Origin: Candidatus Parcubacteria bacterium | Lineage (GTDB): Bacteria > Patescibacteriota > Patescibacteriia > Patescibacteriales > UBA12075 | Length of the DNA stretch: 64,000 nt | Assembly (NCBI GenBank): GCA_963814275.1 | Contig: CAWFCE010000002.1 | Coordinates: forward strand, 811,263-875,262 | Direction of reading: 5' to 3' | In this document: piece by piece, positions 39,883 to 62,556 of the stretch | Numbering within the stretch: the first letter of the stretch is position 1 | Layout: each line of letters starts with the position of its first letter | Translations under genes and position numbers: made by a program | Notes under the pieces: model-generated | What the model was told of the DNA's origin: nothing | The model's input: only the letters and a program-made list of their open reading frames with translations | The model's database searches: none

Positions 39883-41199
39883 ATGCCCAAGATTAAAAAC
39901 ATTTTAGCCCGCGAGATCCTTGATTCACGGGGTAATCCGACTGTGGAAACGAATATTATCCTGGATAACGGTGTTTCGGCCAAAGCCAGCGTGCCGAGCG
40001 GAGCCTCGACCGGCATTCACGAGGCCTGGGAATTGCGGGACGAAGATTATCAGCGCTATAGCGGCAAAGGCGTGCTCAAAGCGGTTGAAAACGTAAATAC
40101 AAAGATCTTCAAAGCGCTTAAAGGAAAAGACATCGATAAGCAGGAGCAGATCGATGAGATGATGATCGAGCTTGATGGCACCAAAAATAAGAAGAATCTG
40201 GGCGCGAACGCCATATTATCTGTATCCCTGGCCTCGGCTCGGACCGCGGCTATGGCAAATAATACGGAGCTTTACGCCTATATTGCAGAAACCTTCAAAT
40301 TTGACACCAAAAAATACCGTCTGCCCACGCCGTCATTCAATATTTTTAACGGCGGCAAACATGCCGACACCAATCTGGATTTCCAGGAATTCATGATTAT
40401 GCCGCTGCGCGGTACGCGGACGGGCACGGATAAGAAACGGATAAACACTGATAACGAACTACCGTTCGCCAGGATGGTGAGGATGGGAGCGGAGATCTTT
40501 CATGAGTTGGGCAAGGTATTGAAGGAAGGGGGGTATGATACCGACGTCGGCAATGAGGGCGGCTATGCCCCGGATATCCATTCGAGCATCCAGGCGCTGG
40601 AATTCATTTCCGCCGCGGCGACCCGGACCGGCTATAAACCGGGCGAGGACGTCGGCTTCGGTATCGATGTCGGTTCGAGCGGACTTTATAATCCGGAAAC
40701 CAAAAAATACGTTTTCAAGCTCGACAATGCCCAGTTTACGGCCGTTACTTTGACCCATTTGTATTATGAATGGTTCCGGAAATTTCCGATCATCTCGATC
40801 GAGGATGGCTTGGGGGAAGATGACTGGGCCGGCTGGCGCGAACTGAATCATGAATTGGGCCGGGAAATGCTTCTGATCGGCGACGATCTTTTCGTGACCA
40901 ACCTCGACCGCCTGCGGCGGGGGATCAAGGAGCGGGCGGCCAACGCCATTCTGATCAAGCCGAACCAGGTCGGGACCTTGACCGAAACGGTGGCAACGAT
41001 CAAACTGGCGCAGAAGCATGGCCTCAAAACCATGGCCAGCCACCGCAGCGGCGAGACCACCGACGACTTTATCGCCGATCTGGCGGTCGGTACCGGTTGT
41101 GATTACATCAAATCCGGCTCATTGTCGCGCGGCGAGAGATTGGCGAAGTATAATAGGCTAATGGAGATAGAGATGGCACTTGAACACGGGAACACTTGA
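39883..41199 (+). CDS. eno: Enolase (phosphopyruvate hydratase)
   Basis: ILDSRGNPTVE, SGASTGIHEA, IEDGLGEDDW, LIKPNQVGTLTE and SHRSGETTD are all canonical enolase motifs. A ~15-aa basic insertion follows EFMIMP. Confidence 0.97.
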   Translation: MPKIKNILAREILDSRGNPTVETNIILDNGVSAKASVPSGASTGIHEAWELRDEDYQRYSGKGVLKAVENVNTKIFKALKGKDIDKQEQIDEMMIELDGTKNKKNLGANAILSVSLASARTAAMANNTELYAYIAETFKFDTKKYRLPTPSFNIFNGGKHADTNLDFQEFMIMPLRGTRTGTDKKRINTDNELPFARMVRMGAEIFHELGKVLKEGGYDTDVGNEGGYAPDIHSSIQALEFISAAATRTGYKPGEDVGFGIDVGSSGLYNPETKKYVFKLDNAQFTAVTLTHLYYEWFRKFPIISIEDGLGEDDWAGWRELNHELGREMLLIGDDLFVTNLDRLRRGIKERAANAILIKPNQVGTLTETVATIKLAQKHGLKTMASHRSGETTDDFIADLAVGTGCDYIKSGSLSRGERLAKYNRLMEIEMALEHGNT

Positions 41200-41648
41200 G
41201 CACCGGATCAATATAATAAGAGTACCTAATTCGTAAATGCAATTTTTTATGGGTGAGTTTCGGGATAAATTAATCAAGAAAATAGATGAATACGTCCATT
41301 ATATCTATAGATTTACCAGAGATTTTCCCAAAGAAGAATTGTACGGGGCGGTATCACAAATCCGCCGCGCGTCTATGTCTATTATATTGAATTATATCGA
41401 AGGCTATGCCAGGAGAAGACCGGCTGTACAGTTGAATTTTTTTGAAACTTCATACGGATCATTTAAAGAATCTAAATATCTTTTACATTTTTCTTTGGTA
41501 GAAAAATATATTAATGAAATTGATTATATAAAAGGTCTAAATTTGGCCGAAGAAATTGGCGCCATGCTATGGACAGAGCTATCTTCTTTGGATAATAAGT
41601 TAAAGCCAGGGATCAAATAGTGTTTCAGTGTTCCGGTGCCCAAGTGTT
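41191..41648. repeat. 17-bp inverted repeat (16/17) bracketing the four-helix-bundle gene
   Basis: The left arm AACACTTGAGCACCGGA (41191-41207) overlaps the eno stop codon. The right arm TCCGGTGCCCAAGTGTT (41632-41648) lies just upstream of gpmI. The arms are rich in GAACAC/GTGTT(C) units. Confidence 0.8.
41237..41620 (+). CDS. Four-helix-bundle protein (23S rRNA intervening-sequence protein family, TIGR02436-like)
   Basis: YRFTRDFPKEELYGAVSQIRRASMSIILNYIEGYARR...SYGSFKESKYLLHFS matches the family pattern FPkeE-x-y-x-l-x-sQlrRAa-x-Si-x-x-NIaEG. An alternative start lies at 41249. Confidence 0.85.
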   Translation: MQFFMGEFRDKLIKKIDEYVHYIYRFTRDFPKEELYGAVSQIRRASMSIILNYIEGYARRRPAVQLNFFETSYGSFKESKYLLHFSLVEKYINEIDYIKGLNLAEEIGAMLWTELSSLDNKLKPGIK

Positions 41649-41662
41649 TAAATGAAAGTATT

Positions 41663-43252
41663 ATGCCGAAAAAAACAAGCAAACCACGTACCAATCTCCC
41701 CCTTGTCCTCATAATCCTCGACGGCTGGGGGATCGATAAGCCGAACAAAGGGAATGCCATAGCGCTGGCCAGGACGCCGACTATGGACGGCTTGATGCGG
41801 AAATATCCGAGTGCCAAACTGCGGGCCCACAGCCGGTTCGTCGGCTTGCCGGCCGGCCAGGTCGGCAATAGCGAAGCCGGGCACATGAACATCGGCGCCG
41901 GCCGCCTGGTCGAACAGGATTCCGTCCGTATCAGCAAAAGCATCCAGGACAAGACTTTCAATAAGAATTCGGCCTTTTTGGGCGCTATCCGCCACGTCAA
42001 AAAAATGAATTCGCGCATGCATCTCATCGGCATGCTGTCCAATGGGCAAAGTCCGCACAGCGACCCGGGGCATTTGCTGGCCCTGATCAAATTAATGAAG
42101 CTGCGCGGCATAGACGACGTTTTTTTGCATCTTTTCACGGATGGCCGCGACTCGCCGAAGTACGCGGCATTGCAGCTGGTTGACGATCTCGAGAGCCGCG
42201 TTTCGGGGGGGATTTATATCGCCTCGATCATGGGCCGGTTCTACGCGATGGACCGGAAAAAGAAATGGGAACGGACCGAAGCGGCATACAAAACGCTGGT
42301 GGCCGGGCAGGGATTGAAGGCAAAAAGCGCGCAAGCGGCCATTACCGAATCGTATAACCGCGGCGAAAGCGACGAATTCATCCAGCCAAACGTGATCGAG
42401 CAGATCAAAGGCTTGAATAGCCGGATCAAAGACGGCGATAGCGTGATATTCTTCAACTTACGATCGGACCGCGGCCGTCAATTGAGTAAGGCGTTTGTCC
42501 AGAAAGATTTCAACCGGATGAATCCGGGTTCGTTCAAACGGCCGAACAAACTGCACCATTTGTATTTTACCGCGATGACCGACTTCGGCCCTGATCTGGA
42601 CGACATTCTGACCGCTTATCCCAGTTTTGACCTGGGCGATACCCTGCCGATGCGGCTGAAAGACTATCGGCAGTTATATCTGGCGGAAACCGAAAAATAC
42701 GCCCATGTGACATATTTTTTCAATGGCGGTTTTTCCGGCACGGTCGCCGGCGAAGAACAAATGATGGTACCGTCGCCGGACGTGAAGTCTTACGACCAGA
42801 CACCGGCCATGAGCTCGGCGGGACTGGCCAAGGTGTTATTGGGCAATATCAAACCGAACGGCAAGACAAAACGCTGGCTTTATGATTTCATTACCGTGAA
42901 TTTCGCCGCTCCCGATATGGTTGGCCATACCGGCAATCTGTCCGCCGCGATCAAGACCTGCGAAGCGGTGGACAAATACGTCAGCGAGATCGTCAAAGCA
43001 TATTTGAAAGTCGGCGGAACCGTTTTGATCACCGCTGATCACGGTAATATCGAAAAAATGATCAATCTGGAAACCGATGAAATTTTTACCGAGCACACCA
43101 CCAATCAGGTACCGTTTATCGTTGTTAATAACAAATTACGCAATCGCTTGAAATTACGCTCCAATGGCATCTTGGGCGATATCGCGCCAACGATACTGAA
43201 GCTATTGGGTGAAAAACGCCCGTCCGCAATGCGGCGGAAAGCGCTTTTTTAG
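41663..43252 (+). CDS. gpmI: 2,3-bisphosphoglycerate-independent phosphoglycerate mutase
   Basis: LVLIILDGWG, the nucleophile motif GQVGNSEAGHMNIGAGR, NFAAPDMVGHTG, ITADHGN and TEHT. The length is full, about 530 aa. The ATG at 41663 is preferred over the track start at 41636. Confidence 0.93.
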   Translation: MPKKTSKPRTNLPLVLIILDGWGIDKPNKGNAIALARTPTMDGLMRKYPSAKLRAHSRFVGLPAGQVGNSEAGHMNIGAGRLVEQDSVRISKSIQDKTFNKNSAFLGAIRHVKKMNSRMHLIGMLSNGQSPHSDPGHLLALIKLMKLRGIDDVFLHLFTDGRDSPKYAALQLVDDLESRVSGGIYIASIMGRFYAMDRKKKWERTEAAYKTLVAGQGLKAKSAQAAITESYNRGESDEFIQPNVIEQIKGLNSRIKDGDSVIFFNLRSDRGRQLSKAFVQKDFNRMNPGSFKRPNKLHHLYFTAMTDFGPDLDDILTAYPSFDLGDTLPMRLKDYRQLYLAETEKYAHVTYFFNGGFSGTVAGEEQMMVPSPDVKSYDQTPAMSSAGLAKVLLGNIKPNGKTKRWLYDFITVNFAAPDMVGHTGNLSAAIKTCEAVDKYVSEIVKAYLKVGGTVLITADHGNIEKMINLETDEIFTEHTTNQVPFIVVNNKLRNRLKLRSNGILGDIAPTILKLLGEKRPSAMRRKALF

Positions 43253-43262
43253 CGCCCGAACT

Positions 43263-43366
43263 TTCGAACACGCAAACACAAGAATACGGTAACCACGGAA
43301 CAAGATAATCCTGAAAAACGGCTAGAATCAACCATGTTCGCGTGTTCCAGTGTTTGGGTGTTCTAA
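43263..43366. repeat. Second GAACAC-type inverted repeat enclosing only ~70 nt ('empty' counterpart of 41191-41648)
   Basis: TTCGAACACGCAAACAC (43263-43279) pairs with GTGTTTGGGTGTTCTAA (43350-43366) at 15/17 positions. The locus lies between the gpmI stop and the start of the gpmI-like gene. Confidence 0.7.
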
Positions 43367-43376
43367 TGCTAACATT

Positions 43377-44288
43377 ATGACAACTAAAAATAATAAGCAA
43401 TTGAACCAGCATGTATTATTGGTAATCCTTGACGGCTGGGGGGTGGCTCCGGCAAGCGATGGTAATGCGATTTCGCAGGCGTCCACGCCATTTTTTGATT
43501 CGTTGATAAAAGATTATCCGGCCACGGTATTGGCCGCCGCTGGTCCCTCCGTCGGTTTGTCTTCAAGAATTACCGGTAATTGCGAAGCCGGACATCAGAT
43601 GATCGGTACCGGCGCGAAAACAAACAGCCGGACCAAGAACTGCCTGGCTTCTGTGTTGGCTCAAAATGGCATAAGCCAATTGCGTATAGCCGATTCGGAG
43701 AAAATCGCCTTGGTGACTTATTTTTTTGATAGCCAGCGTTATCTAAGCGAAAAGTTGATACAGAACTTATTGGTCCCGTCGCTTACCATCGGTGATAATG
43801 CGAACCGGGCGGAAGCCCTGAATGAAGCAGCGGCAAAGATCACTGTCGAGGCAATTGAACGAAACGAACATGGATTGATTGTCGTTAATTTAGGCGGTCC
43901 GGACACAGTCGGCCATAGCGGTGATCTGGCCGCGGTCAAGCGGGTGATAGAAAGCACAGACAGGAAATTGGAACAGATCACTGCGGCCGCGTTAAATCGC
44001 GGTTATTTGGTGCTGGTAACTGCCGACCACGGCTTTGTTGAGCAAACGGTCGATTTGCCAACGGATATTAACAACCGGGAACACACGAAAAATCCGGTGC
44101 CATTGATCATTATCGGAAAACAATTCCTCGGACGATCAGCCGGTTGGATAGACAGCCATGGCAAGGATCTGAGCGCCGTAACGCCCCAGGGCTCGCTTAT
44201 GGATGTTGCCCCGACCATACTTAGCTTATTCAATATAACCCAGCCGGTCGAAATGACCGGACACAATCTGATAGCCGATAAATTATGA
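43377..44288 (+). CDS. iPGM-like metallo-phosphatase-domain protein lacking the phosphotransferase domain, with Cys at the nucleophile position
   Basis: VLLVILDGWG, GNCEAGHQMIGTG (TGC at 43581-43583, where gpmI has Ser), NLGGPDTVGHSG, VTADHG and REHT are retained. Only about 35 aa separate the nucleophile motif from the VTYFF strand, against about 235 aa in gpmI. Confidence 0.75.
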   Translation: MTTKNNKQLNQHVLLVILDGWGVAPASDGNAISQASTPFFDSLIKDYPATVLAAAGPSVGLSSRITGNCEAGHQMIGTGAKTNSRTKNCLASVLAQNGISQLRIADSEKIALVTYFFDSQRYLSEKLIQNLLVPSLTIGDNANRAEALNEAAAKITVEAIERNEHGLIVVNLGGPDTVGHSGDLAAVKRVIESTDRKLEQITAAALNRGYLVLVTADHGFVEQTVDLPTDINNREHTKNPVPLIIIGKQFLGRSAGWIDSHGKDLSAVTPQGSLMDVAPTILSLFNITQPVEMTGHNLIADKL

Positions 44289-47215
44289 GTACTGCGCGCC
44301 AGTTGAATATTGTGTTGGCTTATGCCATATTGTGCGTCTCCTTGATGGCCGGCGGATTTTTATTTTTTAATAAACCAATTTACAGCGCCGAACCGTCATC
44401 GGATGCGATAGCGATCAGGGTCATACCGAACCAGGAGCATTTGAGTGCCCGTTTATGGTACGGCCGGCAGGGATTTACCGGATCTCCGCAGTCATTGACG
44501 GTCGACGGCTATGAGGCGGTACGGGACGGAAGGACAGTGTATGTAAATGTCGGCAATGTCGACGGCAGTAATCTTTGGACCAATATTTATCTGATATCCT
44601 ATAACCAGCAAGCCGAAAAGATCACGAGCGACGTATTCGGCCAACTTTTGAAACATTGGAAATTCAATACTAATCTTAATCTAATGTCCGGTTTTTGCCG
44701 AAAAGACGCTACTATTAGCTGTCAAAAAGACGAATCCTGCCCGATCGGTGATTTTTGCGATAGCCCCAAAGCCAGGGTAATACGAGATACCCGGCGCTTG
44801 TCTGACTTGGCCGATCTACAGTCGCTATTGGATAGCTTCAATGCCCAAAACGGCCATTATCCGATCCTGTCGGCCGGCACCTACCTCGCCAACCGGACGA
44901 TATCCGTCTGGCCTAGTTGGCTGGACGCCTTTCGCAAGGAGTTGGGGACTAACCCGCCGGTGGATCCGGTTAACGCGTTCGAAAAATGTCCTGACGGGTA
45001 CGACGGAGTTACCTGCTGGAACGAAGCGGAAAAACGATTTCCCACAACTTTGCCGAATTTACCGGCCGCCAGCAATGGACTGGTATATATCTATCTATCC
45101 GATCCGACCGGACTGTCGGGAACGGTATGCGGCGTCTTCGAAAGCGGCTATACTATTTCACCCAGTCCGCCCGACTGCGTAGTCAAAATATGCCTTGATT
45201 TCGACCGTGACGGCTACGGCAGCCCCGGTTCGGCTGACTGCCCGAACGGCAGCGCTACCGATTGTAATGACACGGATACAAAGGTGCATGCCGGTAGCGC
45301 GGAAATATGCGATAACCACTTTGATGACGATTGTGACGGCCTGGTCGATTGTTGGGATGATAATTGTTTTGCGAATCCATCGTGTACCGCTTTTGTCTGC
45401 CATCCGGACGGCTGCGGCAATGGTTGCCCCAGCTTTTGTACGAAGAGCCAGGATCTTGATTGCGGGCCGCCGAATTGCGTTCCCGGCAACGGCTGCTGCG
45501 AATTCGGCTGTACCTTCGCCTCCGGCGATACCGATTGTCCGCCCACCTGTTCGCCGAACGGCTGCGGTGGCGGCTGCCCGCCCGGCTGCGGTCCGTCCGA
45601 TGATCCGGACTGTGCCGGCTGCGTAAGCGGCAACAGCTGCTGCACCGCCGGGTGCACCCGGACCTTGGGTGATCTGGACTGTCCGGAAGAGTGCGTAGAC
45701 GCCGATCATGACGGCTATAACGCTTACAACGCGGCGCTTTGCCCTTCGGGGAACGACTGCGATGACGGCAATAATAATATCTATCCCGGACACAGCGAGC
45801 TCTGCGACGGCCTGGATAACGACTGCGATGATACCAATCATAGCGACGGCATAACTCCTTCCTCAATTGACGACGGGCTGTCCGAGGAGCAATGCAGTTT
45901 CGTTTGCGCCGCCCATGGCTATGTATGGACCGGTTTGGGCGACCCGCGGAATTGCTGCGGCAATAACAGCGCTACTCATGAAGGAAATCCATATCAGAAT
46001 CACGAGAATAATCCACCAGGCTTCTGCAGCGATGGCAATGACAATGATTGCGACGGATTGATCGATATCCTTGATTCGGATTGCAGTACTTTGTGCGGTT
46101 CCAGCGGAGAGAACGATTGGTATGTGTTCTCGCAAGGGGATTGCGACCAATGCGACCATGCCGGCGACGACGACGGCGACCAGCCGGGCGATTGGGGCGT
46201 GTATAGCAATAAGATCGATGCCTGCGACAGCGATTGCGGGATAGTTTCCGGCAATACGGTTACATTGAGCAAATTCGAACCGGTGAGCGAGACCAGCTGC
46301 GATGGCCTCGACAACGATTGCGACGGCACGATTGACGAGGGTCTGGCTATTACATATTATCGCGACAGCGATAATGATAACTACGGCGATCCGCTTGACA
46401 GCATCGTTGCCTGCCCTTCATCCCCGCCCAGCGGTTATGTCGCCGATGGCTCCGACTGTGACGACGGCAATAGCAGCGTTCATCCTTGGGCCACGGAAAT
46501 ATGCGAAGACGGTATTGATAACGATTGTGTCGGCGGCGATTATTCGCCCTGTCCGCCGCCTTGCGACGACAGCGACGGTGATGGCTACGGCGTATGTCCG
46601 AAGTGCGGCACGGCAAACTCTTGTACTTATGACGGCGAGGATTGCGACGATACCAGAATTTATGTTCACCCCGGCCTGGAAGAAAGATGTGATGGATTCG
46701 ATAATGATTGCGACGATCCGGACCATAGCGACGGGGTCGATCCGGCGGCAATCGACGAAGGCTGTAATGATGACGGCGACGGCTATTGCGACGAGGATTT
46801 TGTTATGTATAATACCCCGTTAAGCCTGTGCCCGTTGACGGTAACCGCCAACGGCAATTACGGCAATGATTGCCTTGACAATCCTTCAAGCCCCTTTGCC
46901 GCCACCACGTACCCGGGCGCGGTCGAAACCTGTAACGGCAACGATGATGATTGCGATAAAGTCGTTGATGATGGCTTCAGCGCCGAAAATTGCCAGCCCG
47001 TATGCGAATTAGGCGGCTTCATCTGGACCGGCAACGGCGACCCGATCAATTGCTGCGGCAACAATGCCGGCGAGGGGGAATACCCGGAGGCAAGCTGTGA
47101 GGATGGGATCGATAATGACTGCGACGGTAGCACCGACTGCGAGGACAGTCCGGACTGCGACGAAGCCTGCAAGCCGGAATGCACATTTATTTTCGAGTTC
47201 CCGTGTGAATTCTAG
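44285..47215 (+). CDS. Giant secreted/anchored Cys-rich protein with 8 C-[DEN]-G-x-D-[ND]-D-C-D metal-binding-type repeats
   Basis: N-terminal hydrophobic anchor. A ~260-aa module is shared with the next gene. Then CDNHFDDDCDG, CDGLDNDCDD, CSDGNDNDCDG, CDGLDNDCDG, CEDGIDNDCVG, CDGFDNDCDD, CNGNDDDCD and CEDGIDNDCDG follow, several preceded by CDDxxxxxxPG-x-x-E. This is the MopE-like 'putative metal-binding motif'. Confidence 0.85.
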   Translation: MSTARQLNIVLAYAILCVSLMAGGFLFFNKPIYSAEPSSDAIAIRVIPNQEHLSARLWYGRQGFTGSPQSLTVDGYEAVRDGRTVYVNVGNVDGSNLWTNIYLISYNQQAEKITSDVFGQLLKHWKFNTNLNLMSGFCRKDATISCQKDESCPIGDFCDSPKARVIRDTRRLSDLADLQSLLDSFNAQNGHYPILSAGTYLANRTISVWPSWLDAFRKELGTNPPVDPVNAFEKCPDGYDGVTCWNEAEKRFPTTLPNLPAASNGLVYIYLSDPTGLSGTVCGVFESGYTISPSPPDCVVKICLDFDRDGYGSPGSADCPNGSATDCNDTDTKVHAGSAEICDNHFDDDCDGLVDCWDDNCFANPSCTAFVCHPDGCGNGCPSFCTKSQDLDCGPPNCVPGNGCCEFGCTFASGDTDCPPTCSPNGCGGGCPPGCGPSDDPDCAGCVSGNSCCTAGCTRTLGDLDCPEECVDADHDGYNAYNAALCPSGNDCDDGNNNIYPGHSELCDGLDNDCDDTNHSDGITPSSIDDGLSEEQCSFVCAAHGYVWTGLGDPRNCCGNNSATHEGNPYQNHENNPPGFCSDGNDNDCDGLIDILDSDCSTLCGSSGENDWYVFSQGDCDQCDHAGDDDGDQPGDWGVYSNKIDACDSDCGIVSGNTVTLSKFEPVSETSCDGLDNDCDGTIDEGLAITYYRDSDNDNYGDPLDSIVACPSSPPSGYVADGSDCDDGNSSVHPWATEICEDGIDNDCVGGDYSPCPPPCDDSDGDGYGVCPKCGTANSCTYDGEDCDDTRIYVHPGLEERCDGFDNDCDDPDHSDGVDPAAIDEGCNDDGDGYCDEDFVMYNTPLSLCPLTVTANGNYGNDCLDNPSSPFAATTYPGAVETCNGNDDDCDKVVDDGFSAENCQPVCELGGFIWTGNGDPINCCGNNAGEGEYPEASCEDGIDNDCDGSTDCEDSPDCDEACKPECTFIFEFPCEF

Positions 47216-47287
47216 TTAAATATCTTGATGTTTTTATTTTAATTGTACTAAGGTATTTATGTTTAGTCGTAATATTGAACTTTTTAC

Positions 47288-47305
47288 CGCGGATTGTACG
47301 CTGAT
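47288..47305 (+). promoter_or_regulatory. Third copy of the CGCGGATT(T/G)TACGCTGAT motif
   Basis: CGCGGATTGTACGCTGAT lies immediately upstream of the 47308/47341 start codons. It matches 51079-51096 at 17/18 positions. Confidence 0.5.
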
Positions 47306-47307
47306 TT

Positions 47308-50300
47308 ATGTCCCGGAGATGCTTAATCGGACAATATATTATGATAAGTAGCAGAAAAGTAATACAATTAACGAGTTTTATTTTTTCGATTATTTTTGTG
47401 TTTTGGTTGGCAATATTAATCTCTTTTATACCTTCCCGCGCCCAAACCGTCTCCTCCCCGGACGCCATCGCCATCCGTATCATTCCCAACGGCGAACACT
47501 TGAGCCCGGCCCGCTGGTACCGCGAGCAGGGATTTACCGGCTCGCCCCAGTCATTGACGGTCGACGGCTACGATGCCGTCCGCGACGGCCGCACCGTCTA
47601 TGTCAATGCCGCCAATATTGACGATAAGGGCACGGCCAGTCAGGCTGATGACGAGCTTTTTACCAATATCTATCTCATCTCATATAACCAGGATGCCGCC
47701 CGCAATACGGTCGATATTTTCGGCAATATCCTCAAACATTTCAAGCTCAATACCAACCGGACTGTGCCGGACAATTGCAACCTGGCCGTGGAAACGGTCT
47801 GCCTTAAGGATTCCGACTGCCCTCTGGGCGATTATTGCCTGAGCGAGAAGGCCCGGATCATCCGCGATGTCCGCCGCCTGCAGGATATCTCGGATATGGA
47901 CGGTTTACTGGCGGCCTATTACGCGGCCAACGGCCGTTATCCCGATCTGGCCGCCGGCTCTTACCTCACGCACCAATCACTCTCCGTCTGGCCCAGCTGG
48001 CAGAAGCTCCTGGCCCAGTATCTGGGCGGTCATCTGCCTGTCGACCCGATCAACCGGCTGGCCCCTTGTCCTGATAATTTCCATCCCGTTACCTGCTGGG
48101 ACGAGGCAGCCAAGCGGTTCGACGACCAGACGCCCGGTGATATCGATATTACCCTGCGCGCCGGCAGCCGCGTCTACAAGTACACCGGACAGCCCAATGG
48201 CGTAAGCTATGTGATCTGCAGCGTCATGGAGTCAGGCTATGTCAAGGACAGCGGCAGCGGCGCCTGTCCGGAATCGGCCGCTTTCAGCCTGAATAACGAC
48301 GCCGTCAACGAGGACCCGTATTTTGCCAATGTCGGCCTGCCGGTCGGATCTGCCGGCCTGCCCTACGAGGGATCGCTCATGGCCGCTGACCCCAATAACG
48401 ATGAGATCCATTGGGAATACAGCGCCCTGGGTTCCTGGAGCGGCTGGTCGGCCGCTCCGGAAATGCTTGCCACCTTCGACCCGCTCCAGAAGCGGATCAC
48501 TGCCGCGGTGGCCGGCCTGCCCGGCGATTATCAGTTTACTGTCAGCCTGGATGATGGCCGGGGCGGGACTGTCAGCCAGACTTTTACCATTACTGTCACC
48601 AATCTGCACGTGCCGGAATTCGCGCCCGTAGGGGATAAGACCGTGGTCATCGGCAGCGGCCTCAATTTCACGGTCAACGCCACCGAAGCAGACGGCCAAT
48701 ACCCCCTGGAATTCACGTTTTCCGGCGGTCCGGTCGGTTTCAATAATAACGGCGCAATGCTCAATGAACACGATTACGGCGTGGTGAGCGACGCGATCAT
48801 CGATATGACCGGCGTCTATCCCGTGAACATGTCTGTCAGCGACTCGTACGGGGGGAGCGAATCGGACGATTTCAATATCAACGTGGTCAACCACCCGCCG
48901 GTAATTTCGTCGCTGGCCAATCTGTCTATTACCGCCTGTGTGACTGACGTTTCTTATCCGGTTTCGGCCACCGACCCCGACGGCCATGCCGTTACTTACG
49001 CCGCCGCCGGCCTGCCTGCCGGATTGGCGATCGACGGCAATACCGGCCTGATCAGCGGCATTACAGCCGCCTCCGCCGGCTCTTACCCGGTAACAATTAC
49101 GGTCCGTGACCAGTATTTCACCCAGACGACCAATCCCTCCCACGCCCAGGCCAGCGCCTCTTTTACGATTACCGTGACGGACGAGACATTTACCGTCTGG
49201 ATCAATAACACCTACGATTTTTATGCCACCCCGCTCGGCATTAACCCCTTGGATCTGTACCTCCACCCTTTTCCTTATGCCACCCTGGCCGAGACCGACG
49301 CGGCCAATTCCGTTGACTGGGTGATCACCCGGACCTCGGCTCAGCCCCCAATACCTGATCTTTCCGTCCTGATCAATAATGCCGGGGCGATCAACGGTTC
49401 TGCCTTCGACAACAATATACCCGCCGCCGGTTATACTTTTACCATTACCGTAACCGCCACGACCCAGACCTGCCATGTCAGCCGGAGCGCCATGGCCACC
49501 TTGACGGTATATCCCAACCAGTGGTGCGGCGATAATATTATCCAAGCCGCCAAGGAATCGTGTGACGGCAGTAAGATGGGCGGCGGTACTTGCCAGAGCG
49601 AAGGGTTCGACAATGGCACCGTAACCTGCAATAACTGTTCCTACAGCACGGTGGCATGCTGCAATAGCGGCTGCGGCAGCCGAGTCTGCGGCCCTGACCC
49701 GAGTGGCTGTGTCGCCGACTGCGGCAGCTGTACAACGGCCAACACGGCCTGCAATATCGACGGGGAATGCATCTGCGCGATCGGCTATGCCACCTGCAGC
49801 ACGAATCCCTATGATGCCGACGGCTGCGAATGCTATACCGGATCCGGTCTGCACGACTGCGACCTTGGCACGCAAACCTGCTGCGACCGCGTCGACGGCG
49901 GCTGGTCGGTCTGGAGCGGCTGGTCCGACCCGGCCGGCTACAGCGATGGCGCCGGCGGCACCTGTTCCAAAACCTGCGGCGGCGGAATCCAGACCCGCAC
50001 CCAGATCTGCAATAATCCGTCCCCCTACTGCAGCGGCCTGGAATGCCTGGGCTGTGTCGGCGCCGCTTGCCCGGATGTCAATACGCAGGTCCAGGGCTGC
50101 AACACCCAGCCCTGCTGTGTTGACGATTGTAGTACGGGAGATATCAGCTGTTTTGCCGATACAGTACATACTTGTGGTGAAGCCGGGGACGGCGATCCTT
50201 GCCTGGATTGGGTGAATGCTTACCAATGCGGCGGTTCCGGCAGTAATAATTCAATATGCAATGGTACGGGAACGGGATGTCAATGCGAGATTGTAAGCCA

Positions 50301-55851: not shown

Positions 55852-55990
55852 GATAGATAAAGGCCTTTTGTGCTATAATATATTTATTAAGCAAAAGATA
55901 TAGATTATTCCAATGTTTAAGCATAGCATTTAAATCACGAGTATCCGGAAGGAAAATAAAAGCAGATAGCATAAATAAAATTTAAAAATG

Positions 55991-56025
55991 CTGTTATCTG
56001 TTATCTGTTATCTGCAATCTGTTGT
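55991..56025. repeat. Tandem heptamer array (CTGTTAT x3, CTGCAAT, CTGTTGT)
   Basis: ctgttat|ctgttat|ctgttat|ctgcaat|ctgttgt. The unit is the same as at 413-441. It lies 78 nt upstream of the 56104 start. Confidence 0.75.
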
Positions 56026-60009: not shown

Positions 60010-62358
60010 TTATTGTCCCGCTTCCGCCGTAGTTTCTTCCAAAAAAGTTGCCGGGGCGGAATATATCTTCGTACCGTTCAGGAAATACATCGTTTTTCCC
60101 GGTTCGTCGACATAGAAATCTTTCAAATTGTCGAATTTGTCCGCTTTGTACTGCTCGATGTACTGGCCGGTTTTATCGAAGAGTATCAGCCGTTTTTCCG
60201 ACGGTTCCAGAATATAGATGTATTTCTGATCCTGGGATACCTGGATCTTCGTCGTGGCGGACAGGGGAGGCTGGACCGCTGCCTCCAGACGGAAATCCTG
60301 CGGTTCGCCGCGCAGATATTTCAGGATTTGGCCGTCGGCCAGAAGGACATAGACATAGCCGTCTATCGCCAAGCCCTGGGCATTATTGAAATCGGCATCC
60401 CCCTGAACCCAGGCATACGGAGAGGAAAACGCGTTGCCGGAGCGGTTGAAGCGGTATATTTGGTCGTCTTCGCGGTCCAGGAGATAAAGGCGCCCGCTGT
60501 AAGTGGCCGCACCCGAGATTTGTTCGGATTTACCCAGCAGATTAATGGATAAGCCGGTCATTGTTTCATCTTTTGTAGACAGGGAAATAATCGATTGCTG
60601 GTTGAAATAATAAATATTTTCTTCATCGGCAAATGTCGGATACCAAAGCGTCTGGATGTCGAGGGAGACGTCGGTAACCGTGGTTACGGCATTGTTATCG
60701 GTATCGAGCACGTAGATCGACTTGTCCCGGCTGTCGGCGGCATACAATTTACCGCCTTGCGGAGAGAGGATTATATTATCCGGCTGAGCATTGCCGTTCA
60801 GGTTGGCTAAATCGGCCAATTCTACGGCGTCATCGATTCGCACCACCCGGCGGGTGATTTCGAGCTGTTCTTCGAGTTTCTTCTTGAAGGTGTTGTATTG
60901 TTCTTTTTGTTCGTCCGTTGCCTGCGGCAGCTGTTCCATCAGCGCCGTAATCTCTTCGAAGAGCTTCTGGGCTCCCGCCTCATTGCTGTAGAGCAGGCTG
61001 GCTTCCGCCTGATTCTGTTTGCGCTGGATCTCGTCAGCCAGCTCCCGGTATTGGTCTTCGATTGCCTGGTTATTCTGCCGCTGGCGATTGATCGCTATAT
61101 TGGCGAATAATACAGCCAGCAACACCAATGATGTCAGGAGAAGAATGCGGCGGAAATTGCTCATACCGGTCAAGAAGCGAAACACGCGCCGCAATTTGAG
61201 ATAGAAAATTGTCGGCAATTTACCGAATGACTCGCCGGCCTGGCGCCAATTAGCGGCTGTTTTAATGATAATATAGGCAATATTGATGAGCCATAGGAAA
61301 ATCGACTTTGCTCCCGATAACAGGCCTTTTATGGGAATTAATGATTTCCTTTTGCCGTACATCTTTTCTTTCAATATGATCGATTTATTTTCTCTGCCCG
61401 TTTTTTTGTCTTTGGAGCCGGAAAAGGAGGCGAAAGAAAACCATTTTTTCAGATTGATAAGGCCGGACGGAGAAAGCAGTGTTTCAGTGTTGTCTTCGGT
61501 GGCATTGAGTTCCGTAATGGAATCCTGGGTGTTTATGGGGGCGGCCAATTTCGGTTCCGCCGCCCGTTCCAGGCTGGTGCGTTTGATGAGTATTCCCAGG
61601 AATGGCACATAGGAGTTAATTTTTTCCAGGACGGTTTTTATCTGTTCGACCGCCCCTTGCGGCGGCAAAGTGGTGACGATATCGATCAACTGCTGGTTGC
61701 TCAGGTATTCGGGCAAGGCTTCATTGGCAACGAGGACATAACCCTTGGACGGAATTTGTCCGCTAACGACATTGGCAAAAAGCTTTTTTGGCGTGTTTAC
61801 CCCTTCTTCATTTCCCGGCTGTTCGGCAGCCAAGTCCGTGATCCTGTATTGCGACTTGCCGCTGTCACCGTCCCCGGACGGCTTCCGGGATCCGGCCTCT
61901 TTGGCCTTGTAAATCAGAAGAACTTTGTTTTTGCCCGTATTGGTGAAATATAGGGTTTGATTGTGGATCACGCCCGCGATAATATTGATCGCATCCAGAT
62001 TGATGGATAGCTTTTCGGCTTCCAGGAATTCCCGGAAATTGGTGTTGGTTTTGGCCAGCGCCATTTCGAAAATATGCTCCGGGGTCACCGTGGTGATCCG
62101 TTCGCGCAGGATTATCTTGTCATTCTGGTAATAATTCTGGACCAGCCGATCAATAAGAAAATTGATTATCTTCAGGCTGGCCTGAAGATTATTATCGATT
62201 TCGACCAAGACAAAAATTTTGCCCGCCAGTGTTTCTTTGATAGTATCCGGCTGGGCAATATAAAGCTCACTGGTTGTCGGGCTGTGTTTGGATGGGGTGA
62301 GATTGATTTGGGCTAATTTATAGCTCATATTACTTAATTTCATTGACGTTATTGCCAT
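60010..62358 (-). CDS. Large bitopic protein: N-terminal globular domain, TM helix, coiled coil, C-terminal beta-propeller-like repeats
   Basis: 782 aa. TM helix ILLLTSLVLLAVLFANIAI. A coiled coil follows (QAIEDQYRELADEIQRKQNQ...). The C-terminus has repeated [LIY]Y-x-x-D-x-x-x-x-x-[IL]-[YIL]-x-[FL]-[DN] blades (LYAADSRDKSIYVLD, LYLLDREDDQIYRFN, IYILEPSEKRLILFD). Confidence 0.8.
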   Translation of the reverse strand: MAITSMKLSNMSYKLAQINLTPSKHSPTTSELYIAQPDTIKETLAGKIFVLVEIDNNLQASLKIINFLIDRLVQNYYQNDKIILRERITTVTPEHIFEMALAKTNTNFREFLEAEKLSINLDAINIIAGVIHNQTLYFTNTGKNKVLLIYKAKEAGSRKPSGDGDSGKSQYRITDLAAEQPGNEEGVNTPKKLFANVVSGQIPSKGYVLVANEALPEYLSNQQLIDIVTTLPPQGAVEQIKTVLEKINSYVPFLGILIKRTSLERAAEPKLAAPINTQDSITELNATEDNTETLLSPSGLINLKKWFSFASFSGSKDKKTGRENKSIILKEKMYGKRKSLIPIKGLLSGAKSIFLWLINIAYIIIKTAANWRQAGESFGKLPTIFYLKLRRVFRFLTGMSNFRRILLLTSLVLLAVLFANIAINRQRQNNQAIEDQYRELADEIQRKQNQAEASLLYSNEAGAQKLFEEITALMEQLPQATDEQKEQYNTFKKKLEEQLEITRRVVRIDDAVELADLANLNGNAQPDNIILSPQGGKLYAADSRDKSIYVLDTDNNAVTTVTDVSLDIQTLWYPTFADEENIYYFNQQSIISLSTKDETMTGLSINLLGKSEQISGAATYSGRLYLLDREDDQIYRFNRSGNAFSSPYAWVQGDADFNNAQGLAIDGYVYVLLADGQILKYLRGEPQDFRLEAAVQPPLSATTKIQVSQDQKYIYILEPSEKRLILFDKTGQYIEQYKADKFDNLKDFYVDEPGKTMYFLNGTKIYSAPATFLEETTAEAGQ

Positions 62359-62416
62359 TATATTATACTATAAAGGGAGAGTAAAGGCAACACTGCGGGA
62401 GATAGGAAATTTGATA

Positions 62417-62477
62417 TTAGAAATTGGGAATATAATACATTTTATAGAGGTGCTTGGATTATATCCCAAATTTCTAA
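62417..62477. repeat. 20-bp-stem hairpin (18/20) within inverted GGAAATT/AATTTCC heptamer arrays in a divergent promoter region
   Basis: TTAGAAATTGGGAATATAAT (62417-62436) pairs with ATTATATCCCAAATTTCTAA (62458-62477). The tandem array AATTTCT|AATTTCC|AATTTCC|AATTTCT lies at 62469-62496. Reverse-complement units GGAAATT and AGAAATT lie at 62405-62425. Confidence 0.7.
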
Positions 62478-62556
62478 TTTCCAATTTCCAATTTCTAATA
62501 ATATTAAAGATAAGTTATCAGCTATTATAGCCAAATTATCCAATAGCCAATCATTT

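Follow-up and report, generated by a model that had tools for sequence, protein, structure and literature searches.

A 64,000-nt stretch of the genome of a Candidatus Parcubacteria bacterium (assembly GCA_963814275.1, contig CAWFCE010000002.1, positions 811,263–875,262, forward strand), here termed the window, has a gene for a four-helix-bundle (FHB) protein of the 23S rRNA intervening-sequence (IVS) type between eno (enolase) and gpmI (cofactor-independent phosphoglycerate mutase, iPGM). The segment at window positions 41174–41651 is very probably a self-contained insertable cassette of ~480 bp, with arrays of short tandem units as its termini. Comparisons with related loci show that the cassette was inserted at the eno/gpmI stop/start junction and that its arms are co-inherited with the open reading frame (ORF). 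A preliminary description of the locus had proposed a discrete insertable unit of the IVS type. This is well supported by the bare junctions of relatives, recurrence in unrelated neighbourhoods, the presence of a miniature version and a favoured stem.

The cassette at the eno–gpmI junction

The eno gene (39883–41199, plus strand) was identified from the ORF list and the Pfam domains Enolase_N and Enolase_C. Downstream of the cassette is gpmI (41663–43252, plus strand), which encodes the full-length iPGM with the Pfam domains Metalloenzyme and iPGM_N. The two enolases closest to that of the window were found in public metagenomes and have identities of 69% and 63%. In both, eno is followed directly by a gpmI-type gene, with a 4-nt overlap (ATGA) in one relative and a 6-nt gap in the other. 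The eno–gpmI junctions of relatives had been named in the preliminary description as a point of comparison, and in these two nearest relatives the junction has no FHB gene and no repeats.

The next junction in the window, between gpmI and a gpmI-like gene, carries an ORF-less miniature of the cassette (43266–43365, plus strand) with an inverted repeat of 31 nt (77%). Its 5′ array (43266–43297) consists of the units GAACACGC AAACACAA GAATACGG TAACCACG, its 3′ array (43334–43365) of the units ATGTTCGC GTGTTCCA GTGTTTGG GTGTTCTA, and the loop between them is 36 nt. The hairpin folds at −40.6 kcal/mol (z = −3.2). The segment 43250–43380 aligns to both ends of the cassette, non-array sequence included, with scores of 32 and 38; shuffled sequences score ~19 ± 3.5 and none of 300 reaches the observed values. 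Thus the miniature looks like a deletion derivative. Elsewhere in the window no arm-like sites are present.

Terminal arrays and the predicted stem

The FHB gene had been described as bracketed by a 17-bp inverted repeat, and the coordinates given for it are exact. The left arm, AACACTTGAGCACCGGA, is at 41191–41207 and overlaps the eno stop codon TGA (41197–41199); the right arm, TCCGGTGCCCAAGTGTT, is at 41632–41648 and is the reverse complement of the left arm with one mismatch (16/17). With a repeat finder, the inverted repeat extends to 18/20 (41191–41210 and 41629–41648) and a second pairing register is found, 41177–41203 with 41620–41646 (21/27). Two registers are found because both arms have the same 8-nt period. 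The left 17-mer, with up to three mismatches, is present at only two sites in the 64 kb, where 0.17 are expected from shuffled sequences.

Iterations of GAACAC and GTGTT, also noted previously around the arms, are real and display an 8-nt period. What had been viewed as one inverted repeat is indeed an inverted repeat, but its arms are tandem arrays of the 7/8-nt kind, here four to five 8-nt units each (GAACACNN / GTGTTYNN). The 5′ arm (41174–41213, plus strand), recognized by its sequence, inverted and direct repeats, an AACAC cluster and the period of 8, consists of five tandem units, TGGCACTT GAACACGG GAACACTT GAGCACCG GATCAATA, and includes the 41191–41207 segment. The 3′ arm (41620–41651, plus strand), recognized by its sequence, repeats and a GTGTT cluster, consists of four, GTGTTTCA GTGTTCCG GTGCCCAA GTGTTTAA, and includes 41632–41648. 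The last ~8 codons of eno and its TGA stop codon are composed of 5′ array sequence, and the 3′ arm begins at the last base of the FHB stop codon. Paired clusters of AACAC and GTGTT are confined, within the window, to this junction and the one after it; GTGTT alone forms one further pair, at 61479–61491.

When the segment 41160–41680 is folded as RNA, the minimum-energy and centroid structures alike close a long-range stem (z = −2.8; 0 of 100 shuffles are as good). The arm duplex has an energy of −36.1 kcal/mol, as compared with −16.8 ± 6.4 for random segment pairs with equal spacing, of which 0.5% reach the observed value. The stem suggested in the preliminary description is thus thermodynamically favoured.

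The four-helix-bundle protein

Assignment of the enclosed gene to the 23S-IVS-type FHB family holds: the ORF at 41237–41620 matches PF05635 (E = 1.9e-23; 83.2 bits, cut-off 33.8) and TIGR02436 (80.7 bits, cut-off 24). The gene itself is taken as 41249–41620 (plus strand), encoding 123 aa. The public annotation also starts at 41249 and its database protein of 123 aa, from a contig of 1.27 Mb, is 100% identical; the alternative ATG at 41237 gives a chain length of 127 aa. The motif Q-x-x-R-[AS]-x-x-S-x-x-x-N-x-x-E-G is present as QIRRASMSIILNYIEG, and residues Q37, R40, S44, N48 and E51 are invariant or nearly so in the family alignment. A GxxRxxxSxxxNxxE motif has been described for this family (PMC3936711).

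An AlphaFold model of the monomer (predicted local distance difference test score, 91.7) displays four helices. It superimposes on 2GSC (XCC0516) with a template modelling (TM) score of 0.83–0.92 and a root mean square deviation of 0.7–0.9, on 2RLD (BT_0352) with TM 0.8–0.9, and more distantly on Avd, with TM about 0.75–0.8. The ratio of nonsynonymous to synonymous substitution rates (dN/dS) between close FHB pairs is 0.04–0.15. Judged from these ratios, the FHB protein is under purifying selection and functional.

Recurrence of the cassette in Patescibacteria

A scan of one genome per species yielded 80 related loci, with proteins that are 56–74% identical, nearly all in metagenome-assembled genomes (MAGs) of Patescibacteria. 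(Labels such as L045 are used below for compared loci from other genomes, plasmids and viral contigs.) Arrays are visible by eye in the flanks of the FHB genes, e.g. TTAACATA ×4, CAAGAAAT ×4 and ACATATC ×4 upstream, with the reverse complements downstream. The mean complementarity of the two flanks is 15.65 within loci and 8.60 ± 3.09 across loci, and 46 of 79 loci are at or above the 95th percentile of this null.

A flank was considered periodic when it contained a 32-nt stretch with ≥75% self-identity at period 7 or 8. By this measure the share of periodic flanks is 66% upstream and 70% downstream, as opposed to 1.9% for control segments, and where both flanks are periodic the period is identical (38/38 loci). 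The consensus units of the 5′ and 3′ arrays at one locus are reverse complements of each other. The units vary among loci, but an ANCA / TGNT core is common. A search for further copies of the arms, as suggested in the preliminary description, therefore has a divided outcome: the architecture recurs at most other FHB loci with the shared ANCA / TGNT core, but the exact arm sequence is not repeated elsewhere.

With a stricter detector, an inverted array pair encloses 40 of 78 FHB genes, as compared with 8 of the 457 remaining genes (odds ratio 59, p = 1e-30). Among the eight genes outside the FHB set are four divergent FHB or Avd genes and two template repeats of diversity-generating retroelements (DGRs). 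The arrays have a median of ~4 units per arm (range 3–9) and the lengths of the two arms are uncorrelated; the idea that array length is matched to a pentamer was dropped on account of these values. The array period is the same in the nearest protein neighbour in 73 of 74 cases (0.56 by chance), and both periods, 7 and 8, can occur within one MAG.

The genes that surround the cassettes are diverse. The 157 neighbouring proteins fall into 109 families, and just 13 of 159 FHB pairs with 70–80% identity have a neighbour family in common. The homologues most similar to the window protein are encoded at the junctions polyprenyl synthase|GcpE (76% identity) and D-Ala-D-Ala carboxypeptidase (Peptidase_S11)|MraY (71%), with 8-nt arrays present at each. 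The 80 related loci all lie outside rRNA genes; two matches in a motif scan were not confirmed by Rfam.

Both neighbours are co-oriented with the gene at 68 of 79 FHB loci, as compared with 83 of 134 other genes (p = 1.6e-4). The gaps around FHB genes are ~40 nt and are occupied by the arrays, whose polarity is constant, with CA-type units upstream and TG-type units downstream in 45 of 52 loci. Co-orientation and array polarity hint at a strand-specific or RNA-level role. The low-complexity arrays align with ~0.73 identity even between random loci, and a comparison of arm conservation with that of synonymous sites is thus uninformative.

The commonest neighbours of cassettes from the Candidate Phyla Radiation (CPR; the Patescibacteria) are type IV pilin-like genes, which account for 11 of the 157 neighbouring proteins at 10 loci (L015, L017, L018, L023, L039, L043, L049, L053, L055 and L065). 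The ATG of the pilin gene is often supplied by the 3′ array. Twelve CPR-type FHB loci, some of them adjoining type IV pilin-like genes (L011, L017, L022, L029, L030, L032, L040, L041, L048, L051, L063 and L070), are on contigs deposited as Gammaproteobacteria, Methanoregula, Ignavibacteriota, Bdellovibrionales, Aminicenantia and others; binning or labelling errors are the probable cause.

Cyanobacterial plasmids and viral contigs

FHB proteins encoded by cyanobacterial plasmids are 31–39% identical to the window protein. Inverted short-period arrays are present at 9 of 12 cyanobacterial plasmid loci (some of the 12 are orthologous); the arrays of the remaining three are direct (one), ambiguous (one) or absent (one). 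The unit pairs include AGTCAGG ×4 / TGACTCC, GGGTGTA / TACACCC, GGAGATA / TATCTCC and GGGGAAA / TTTCCCC. Viral contigs show, among others, GAGTAGG / CCTACTC and GGCAGAA / TTCTGCC. Several cassettes are within cas operons, at cas6|cas4 and cmr2|cmr3, and in two plasmid examples the arrays are inverted at cmr2|cmr3 and direct at cas6|cas4. When the 29 non-redundant loci outside the CPR, from cyanobacterial plasmids and viral contigs, are pooled, flank complementarity averages 15.5 versus 7.2 ± 3.3 for the null, whose 95th percentile is reached by 19 of them. A purine-rich 5′ array goes with a pyrimidine-rich 3′ array at 10 of 14 non-CPR loci, a further hint of a strand-specific or RNA-level role.

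Two sets of closely related sequences show changes at the arrays. The viral loci L176 and L177 are 95.5% identical over an aligned stretch of 2.2 kb and have a single indel there: one CCTACTC unit of the 3′ array, shortly after the FHB stop codon. This single-heptamer indel is direct evidence of unit slippage.

The second set, which gives the most telling comparison, consists of sister Nostoc plasmids (L166/L162 versus L201), where two different FHB cassettes occupy neighbouring junctions of one operon, on opposite sides of a 288-nt gene (WP_104899637.1). The first junction reads TAG gtt ATG when empty and TAA–array–ORF–array–ATG when filled, in reciprocal plasmids; the second reads TAA ATG when empty and TAA–array–ORF–array–ATG when filled. 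The inserted DNA comprises the two arrays and the ORF and nothing else. It lies exactly between a stop codon and the start codon that follows, and the stop-start spacing at the empty sites is 0–3 nt.

Array hairpins without an FHB gene

ORF-less array hairpins were detected 27 times in the 80 loci and the window. In the window they comprise the miniature at 43266–43365 and three of the heptamer type, at 357–443 (CAGAAAC.../CTGTTAT), where the hairpin ends just before a start codon, at 55960–56025 (GCAGATA/CTGTTAT ×4) and at 62406–62502 (GAAATTN/AATTTCN). The CTGTTAT unit is common to two of these three intergenic hairpins.

At some other loci, hairpins with the unit of the local FHB cassette are found between tRNA genes (L016, 3079–3520; L008, 1731–3671; L080, 3487–3558), and arrays of several unit types are nested in each other in L033 (1740–2200). 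Two Peregrinibacteria loci, L045 (450–5060) and L066 (2540–5090), are the only DGR loci in the related set. Both have Avd, a template repeat and a reverse transcriptase, with a lectin-fold variable-repeat target seen in L045. In both, a gene of the FHB subfamily of the window is between Avd and the template repeat, and heptamer hairpins with TGAAGCT units are present between nearly all components.

Proposed model and alternative explanations

The best overall explanation, which is favoured with some reserve, is that of an IVS-type insertable cassette in a protein-coding operon together with processing of an RNA stem. The part that concerns the RNA stem and its processing is drawn by analogy and, taken by itself, is tentative.

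The cassette was inserted at the eno/gpmI stop/start junction, and what looks like an ORF-less deletion derivative occupies the next junction. No −35/−10 promoter is detectable in the cassette, which has the orientation of the operon; its transcription is therefore probably by read-through from eno. The 5′ array (A/C-rich) and the 3′ array (U/G-rich) of such an RNA could zip into a helix of ~25–30 bp, and the equal period of the arms would allow several registers. Such a helix would loop out the cassette mRNA. It may then be cut by a double-strand-specific RNase, as in the 23S IVSs, to give separate eno and gpmI messages. Looping-out and cutting would make an insertion into the operon tolerable. 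The model draws on the precedent of the Coxiella IVS, with its 28-bp stem cut by RNase III (PMC4990558), on the co-orientation with operons, on the conserved polarity of the arms and on the predicted stability of the stem.

A number of observations weigh against this model. Selection on a sense-strand RNA helix normally gives an excess of G:U over A:C mismatches; the arm mismatches at 65 loci are 55 G:U and 70 A:C, i.e. there is no G:U excess, which fits a DNA-level constraint or homogenization of the arms equally well. The stem would bury the sequence that adjoins the gpmI start codon. The window arrays are degenerate, with a self-identity at period 8 of only 0.67 and 0.63. A quarter to half of the FHB loci, depending on the criterion, have no detectable array pair, and the cyanobacterial locus L171 has direct rather than inverted arrays. 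No target-site duplication is present at either Nostoc junction, the relatives of the window being too divergent to resolve the window junction, and no recombinase was found for the cassette. There is no RNase III gene signature in the 64-kb window, which says nothing about the remaining genome. Arrays of 7/8 nt, including ORF-less hairpins of other unit types, are common in the carrier genomes; thus this class of hairpin is not exclusive to FHB genes.

Several rival explanations were weighed; those that invoke DNA-level termini, protein-binding arrays or a prior hairpin are not mutually exclusive with the favoured model. The arrays may act on DNA, either as terminal recognition or recombination sites (like multi-site transposon ends or the arms of MITEs, miniature transposable elements with inverted repeats) or by hairpin or cruciform extrusion at replication. 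The RNA stem would then be a by-product, with the FHB pentamer itself or a factor from another locus moving the cassette. This is possible, though rather doubtful. It agrees with the Nostoc plasmids, where the arrays are the exact ends of the inserted DNA, with ORF-less miniatures that have the identical kind of ends, and with the lack of a G:U over A:C bias in the arms. Both arms keep period and unit and both track the protein clade, while the copy number slips, as in the one-heptamer difference between L176 and L177. However, no transposase, integrase or reverse transcriptase is found in or near the cassette, and a target-site duplication is not seen at the Nostoc junctions. Unit sequences vary widely among cassettes, even in one genome, and a single trans-acting recombinase is therefore hard to reconcile with them. 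A strand-symmetric signal alone also leaves operon co-orientation and arm polarity unexplained.

That the arrays are tandem protein-binding sites, with the hairpin secondary, is improbable. The protein could be the FHB pentamer, an Avd-like binder or a single-strand RNA binder such as S1, and binding would set the translation of the cassette and of the downstream gene. The placement of the arrays is suggestive, as only a few bases separate the 5′ arrays from the FHB start codon, while the 3′ arrays reach the start of the next gene. The ANCA / TGNT core is kept across units that otherwise differ, cyanobacterial 5′ units have a Shine-Dalgarno-like GGAG and 3′ units a CTCC, and L171 has direct arrays on both sides. 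The fold matches Avd of the DGR ribonucleoprotein (PDB 8UB7), and translational regulation has been proposed for heptamer repeats (TAACTGA) upstream of start codons (MacGregor 2015, PMC4679880). On the other hand, arms that are reverse complements show different sequences to one single-strand binder. Complementarity is kept unit by unit while the sequence drifts, and a median of ~4 units with no correlation between the two arms also argues against binding sites.

It is very unlikely that the hairpin came first, i.e. that intercistronic array hairpins are a general “punctuation” and the FHB ORF landed later in a loop, with the arms outside of the mobile unit. The frequency of ORF-less array hairpins (27 in the 80 loci and the window), some between tRNA genes and some between every gene of two DGR loci, is what such a view would draw upon. 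Yet period and unit follow the FHB clade and not the host genome (73/74; both periods in one MAG), the empty Nostoc sites have a stop-start spacing of 0–3 nt and no hairpin, and the eno junctions of relatives are bare. The window miniature, moreover, shares interior non-array sequence with the cassette, as expected of a deletion derivative.

Chance, or a neutral by-product of slippage-prone low-complexity intergenic DNA unlinked to the gene, has almost nothing to recommend it: the arms are AT-rich and of low complexity and arrays are common in these genomes, but the 17-mer expectation of 0.17, the equal period of both arms (38/38 loci) and a design common to CPR, cyanobacteria and viral contigs speak against it, and the 59-fold enrichment of array-pair enclosure at FHB genes (p = 1e-30) refutes it.

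Two other ideas were set aside. Periods of 7 and 8, which are not multiples of 3, might supply stop and start codons in all three frames, and the CPR core (CA[T/C/A] upstream, [A/G/T]TG downstream) fits this; the cyanobacterial and viral units do not, and it was therefore dropped as a general explanation. A DGR remnant was likewise rejected. No reverse transcriptase is encoded in the window, where tblastn with one from a DGR as query gave nothing below E = 1, and there is no template/variable repeat.

Other features of the locus

A scan for promoters and terminators shows no signals above chance between eno, the FHB gene and gpmI, and neither cassette junction has an intrinsic terminator of the type with a short GC-rich hairpin and a U-run. 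A TATAAT hexamer (41213–41218, plus strand) lies 30 nt upstream of the ATG, on the inner side of the 5′ arm. By its sequence it is a candidate −10 box of the cassette gene; no plus-strand promoter above chance was called at this position in the scan. A comparable TATAAT follows the 5′ array in L163, L183 and L184.

Downstream of the miniature hairpin is a short gpmI paralogue (43377–44288, plus strand) that encodes a 303-aa metalloenzyme with the Pfam Metalloenzyme domain only and no iPGM_N. The gpmI paralogues are thus in tandem in the window. After eno, L082 has the long form only and L083 the short form only, a short gpmI-like homologue being located directly after eno in L083. The enolase of the window has an extra loop (PLRGTRTGTDKKRINTDNELPFARM, ~40400–40470) and is here 8–15 residues longer than its two closest relatives.

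The GC profile shows ~0.33–0.35 for the FHB gene and 0.49–0.6 for the flanking genes. The eno–gpmI operon lies at the left edge of a block of raised GC content (40000–50000, especially 44285–47215), with 0.49–0.60 as compared to 0.34–0.44 on both sides. The block contains the gene of a repetitive 976-aa protein, rich in Cys/Asp, whose N terminus has a hydrophobic segment.

No other FHB gene is present in the 64-kb window, and no rRNA or tRNA was found in it. Rfam gave no match at the gathering threshold for the whole window and none at E ≤ 1 over 41100–43450, and there is no PADLOC defence-system match. Exact matching of the eno and gpmI proteins in the database returned the source contig only, and thus no strain-level presence/absence pair.

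Relation to known elements

The cassette resembles the 23S IVSs of Leptospira, Coxiella burnetii and Brucella, with which it has the protein family PF05635 in common. In both, an ORF is in the loop of a stem with complementary termini, the GC content is lower than that of the surroundings and the distribution is sporadic. The Coxiella IVS, which is cleaved by RNase III, is 428 nt long, has a 28-bp terminal stem, carries an ORF for S23p and is poorer in GC than its genome (PMC4990558); the element described here is of similar size (about 430–480 nt) and its predicted stem is about 25–31 bp.

There are also differences. The Coxiella IVS ORF has been reported as decaying and not translated (PMC4990558), whereas the window-type FHB protein is under strong purifying selection. 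RNase III cleavage has been demonstrated for 23S IVSs, while the stem shown here is known from prediction alone. The 23S IVS sits in helix 25 or 45 of 23S rRNA and the window element between protein-coding genes; therefore the latter is not a 23S IVS in the strict sense, though it has IVS anatomy. To our knowledge, tandem arrays of 7/8-nt units have not been described for the arms of 23S IVSs.

The arrays are similar to known heptamer repeats, e.g. TAACTGA (PMC4679880), GGGAATC / GGGGATT, which forms inverted pairs in Xanthomonas (PMC4692102), and the heptamer-built P6b stem of the Nostoc tRNA-Leu intron (PMC4476775). Like the present arrays, repeats of the short tandemly repeated repetitive (STRR) type are intergenic tandem units (7 nt; 8 nt in the window) that often end a few bases before a start codon, often occur as inverted pairs able to form hairpins and show copy number slippage. 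Here, however, the arrays are the two ends of an FHB cassette and co-vary with the protein clade. The texts of PMC4679880 and PMC4692102 were searched and make no mention of S23, four helix or intervening sequences alongside the repeats.

As with MITEs, the termini are inverted, the site is intergenic, and full-length and ORF-less versions are present in one genome. Two related copies, the cassette and the miniature, are found in the 64 kb. Unlike MITEs, the cassette (itself without a transposase) has no identified transposase partner and no target duplication (Nostoc), and its termini are short-unit arrays that differ from copy to copy.

A small selfish ORF wedged between conserved co-oriented genes, with a presence that varies among close relatives, is also a property of the free-standing homing-endonuclease genes of phages and of the ORFs inserted in CPR rRNA genes. 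In the latter, 23S_rRNA_IVP ORFs share insertion sites with LAGLIDADG genes (PMC11270868). Homing-endonuclease genes do not have the flanking repeat arrays of the FHB cassette. We know of no nuclease activity for the FHB fold.

The fold is also that of Avd of DGRs (PDB 4DWL, 8UB7), at the TM of about 0.75–0.8 given above. The window protein is below the Avd cut-offs (NF033474, 29.6 versus 80 bits; PF22296, 28.4 versus 40) and there is no reverse transcriptase nearby; therefore it is not an Avd. IVP genes have in addition been listed as CRISPR-associated, inside cas operons (PMC3936711; PMC10910872). As those in the two plasmid examples are flanked by short arrays, IVP genes in cas operons may be selfish insertions and not functional partners.

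Significance

Heptamer arrays, and IVP genes in cas operons and CPR rRNA, were known separately. What appears to be new is the recognition of FHB genes as cassettes bounded by inverted 7/8-nt arrays; a literature search found no paper in which FHB genes are connected to heptamer or octamer arrays at their flanks, although its coverage is incomplete and an earlier description is possible. At the locus described here, the cassette accounts for the odd 460-bp AT-rich gap in a glycolytic operon.

A broader proposal is that FHB genes (S23p / IVP / Avd-like) with inverted 7–8-nt arrays form an unrecognized class of autonomous mobile element, in which a pentameric protein would recognize or propagate its own arrays, as RNA or DNA. 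This is unlikely on present evidence. If true, one mechanism would be behind the spread of 23S IVSs and the IVP genes of cas, DGR and housekeeping operons, and part of the heptamer (STRR-type) hairpins of cyanobacteria, CPR and other bacteria would be ORF-less derivatives.

The cassettes are a testable model system, and there are cultivable carriers: Nostoc punctiforme with NPUN_RS35280 on pNPUN02, Trichormus variabilis with AVA_RS28115 and Picosynechococcus PCC 7003 with AWQ21_RS15215, at cmr2|cmr3. The ORF is normally delivered with two inverted arrays, precisely between a stop codon and the next start codon, and ORF-less hairpins are left behind. This gives a shared handle on two puzzles: the spread of 23S IVSs and the role of the FHB ORF, which date from the early 1990s, and the origin and partner protein of heptamer repeats.

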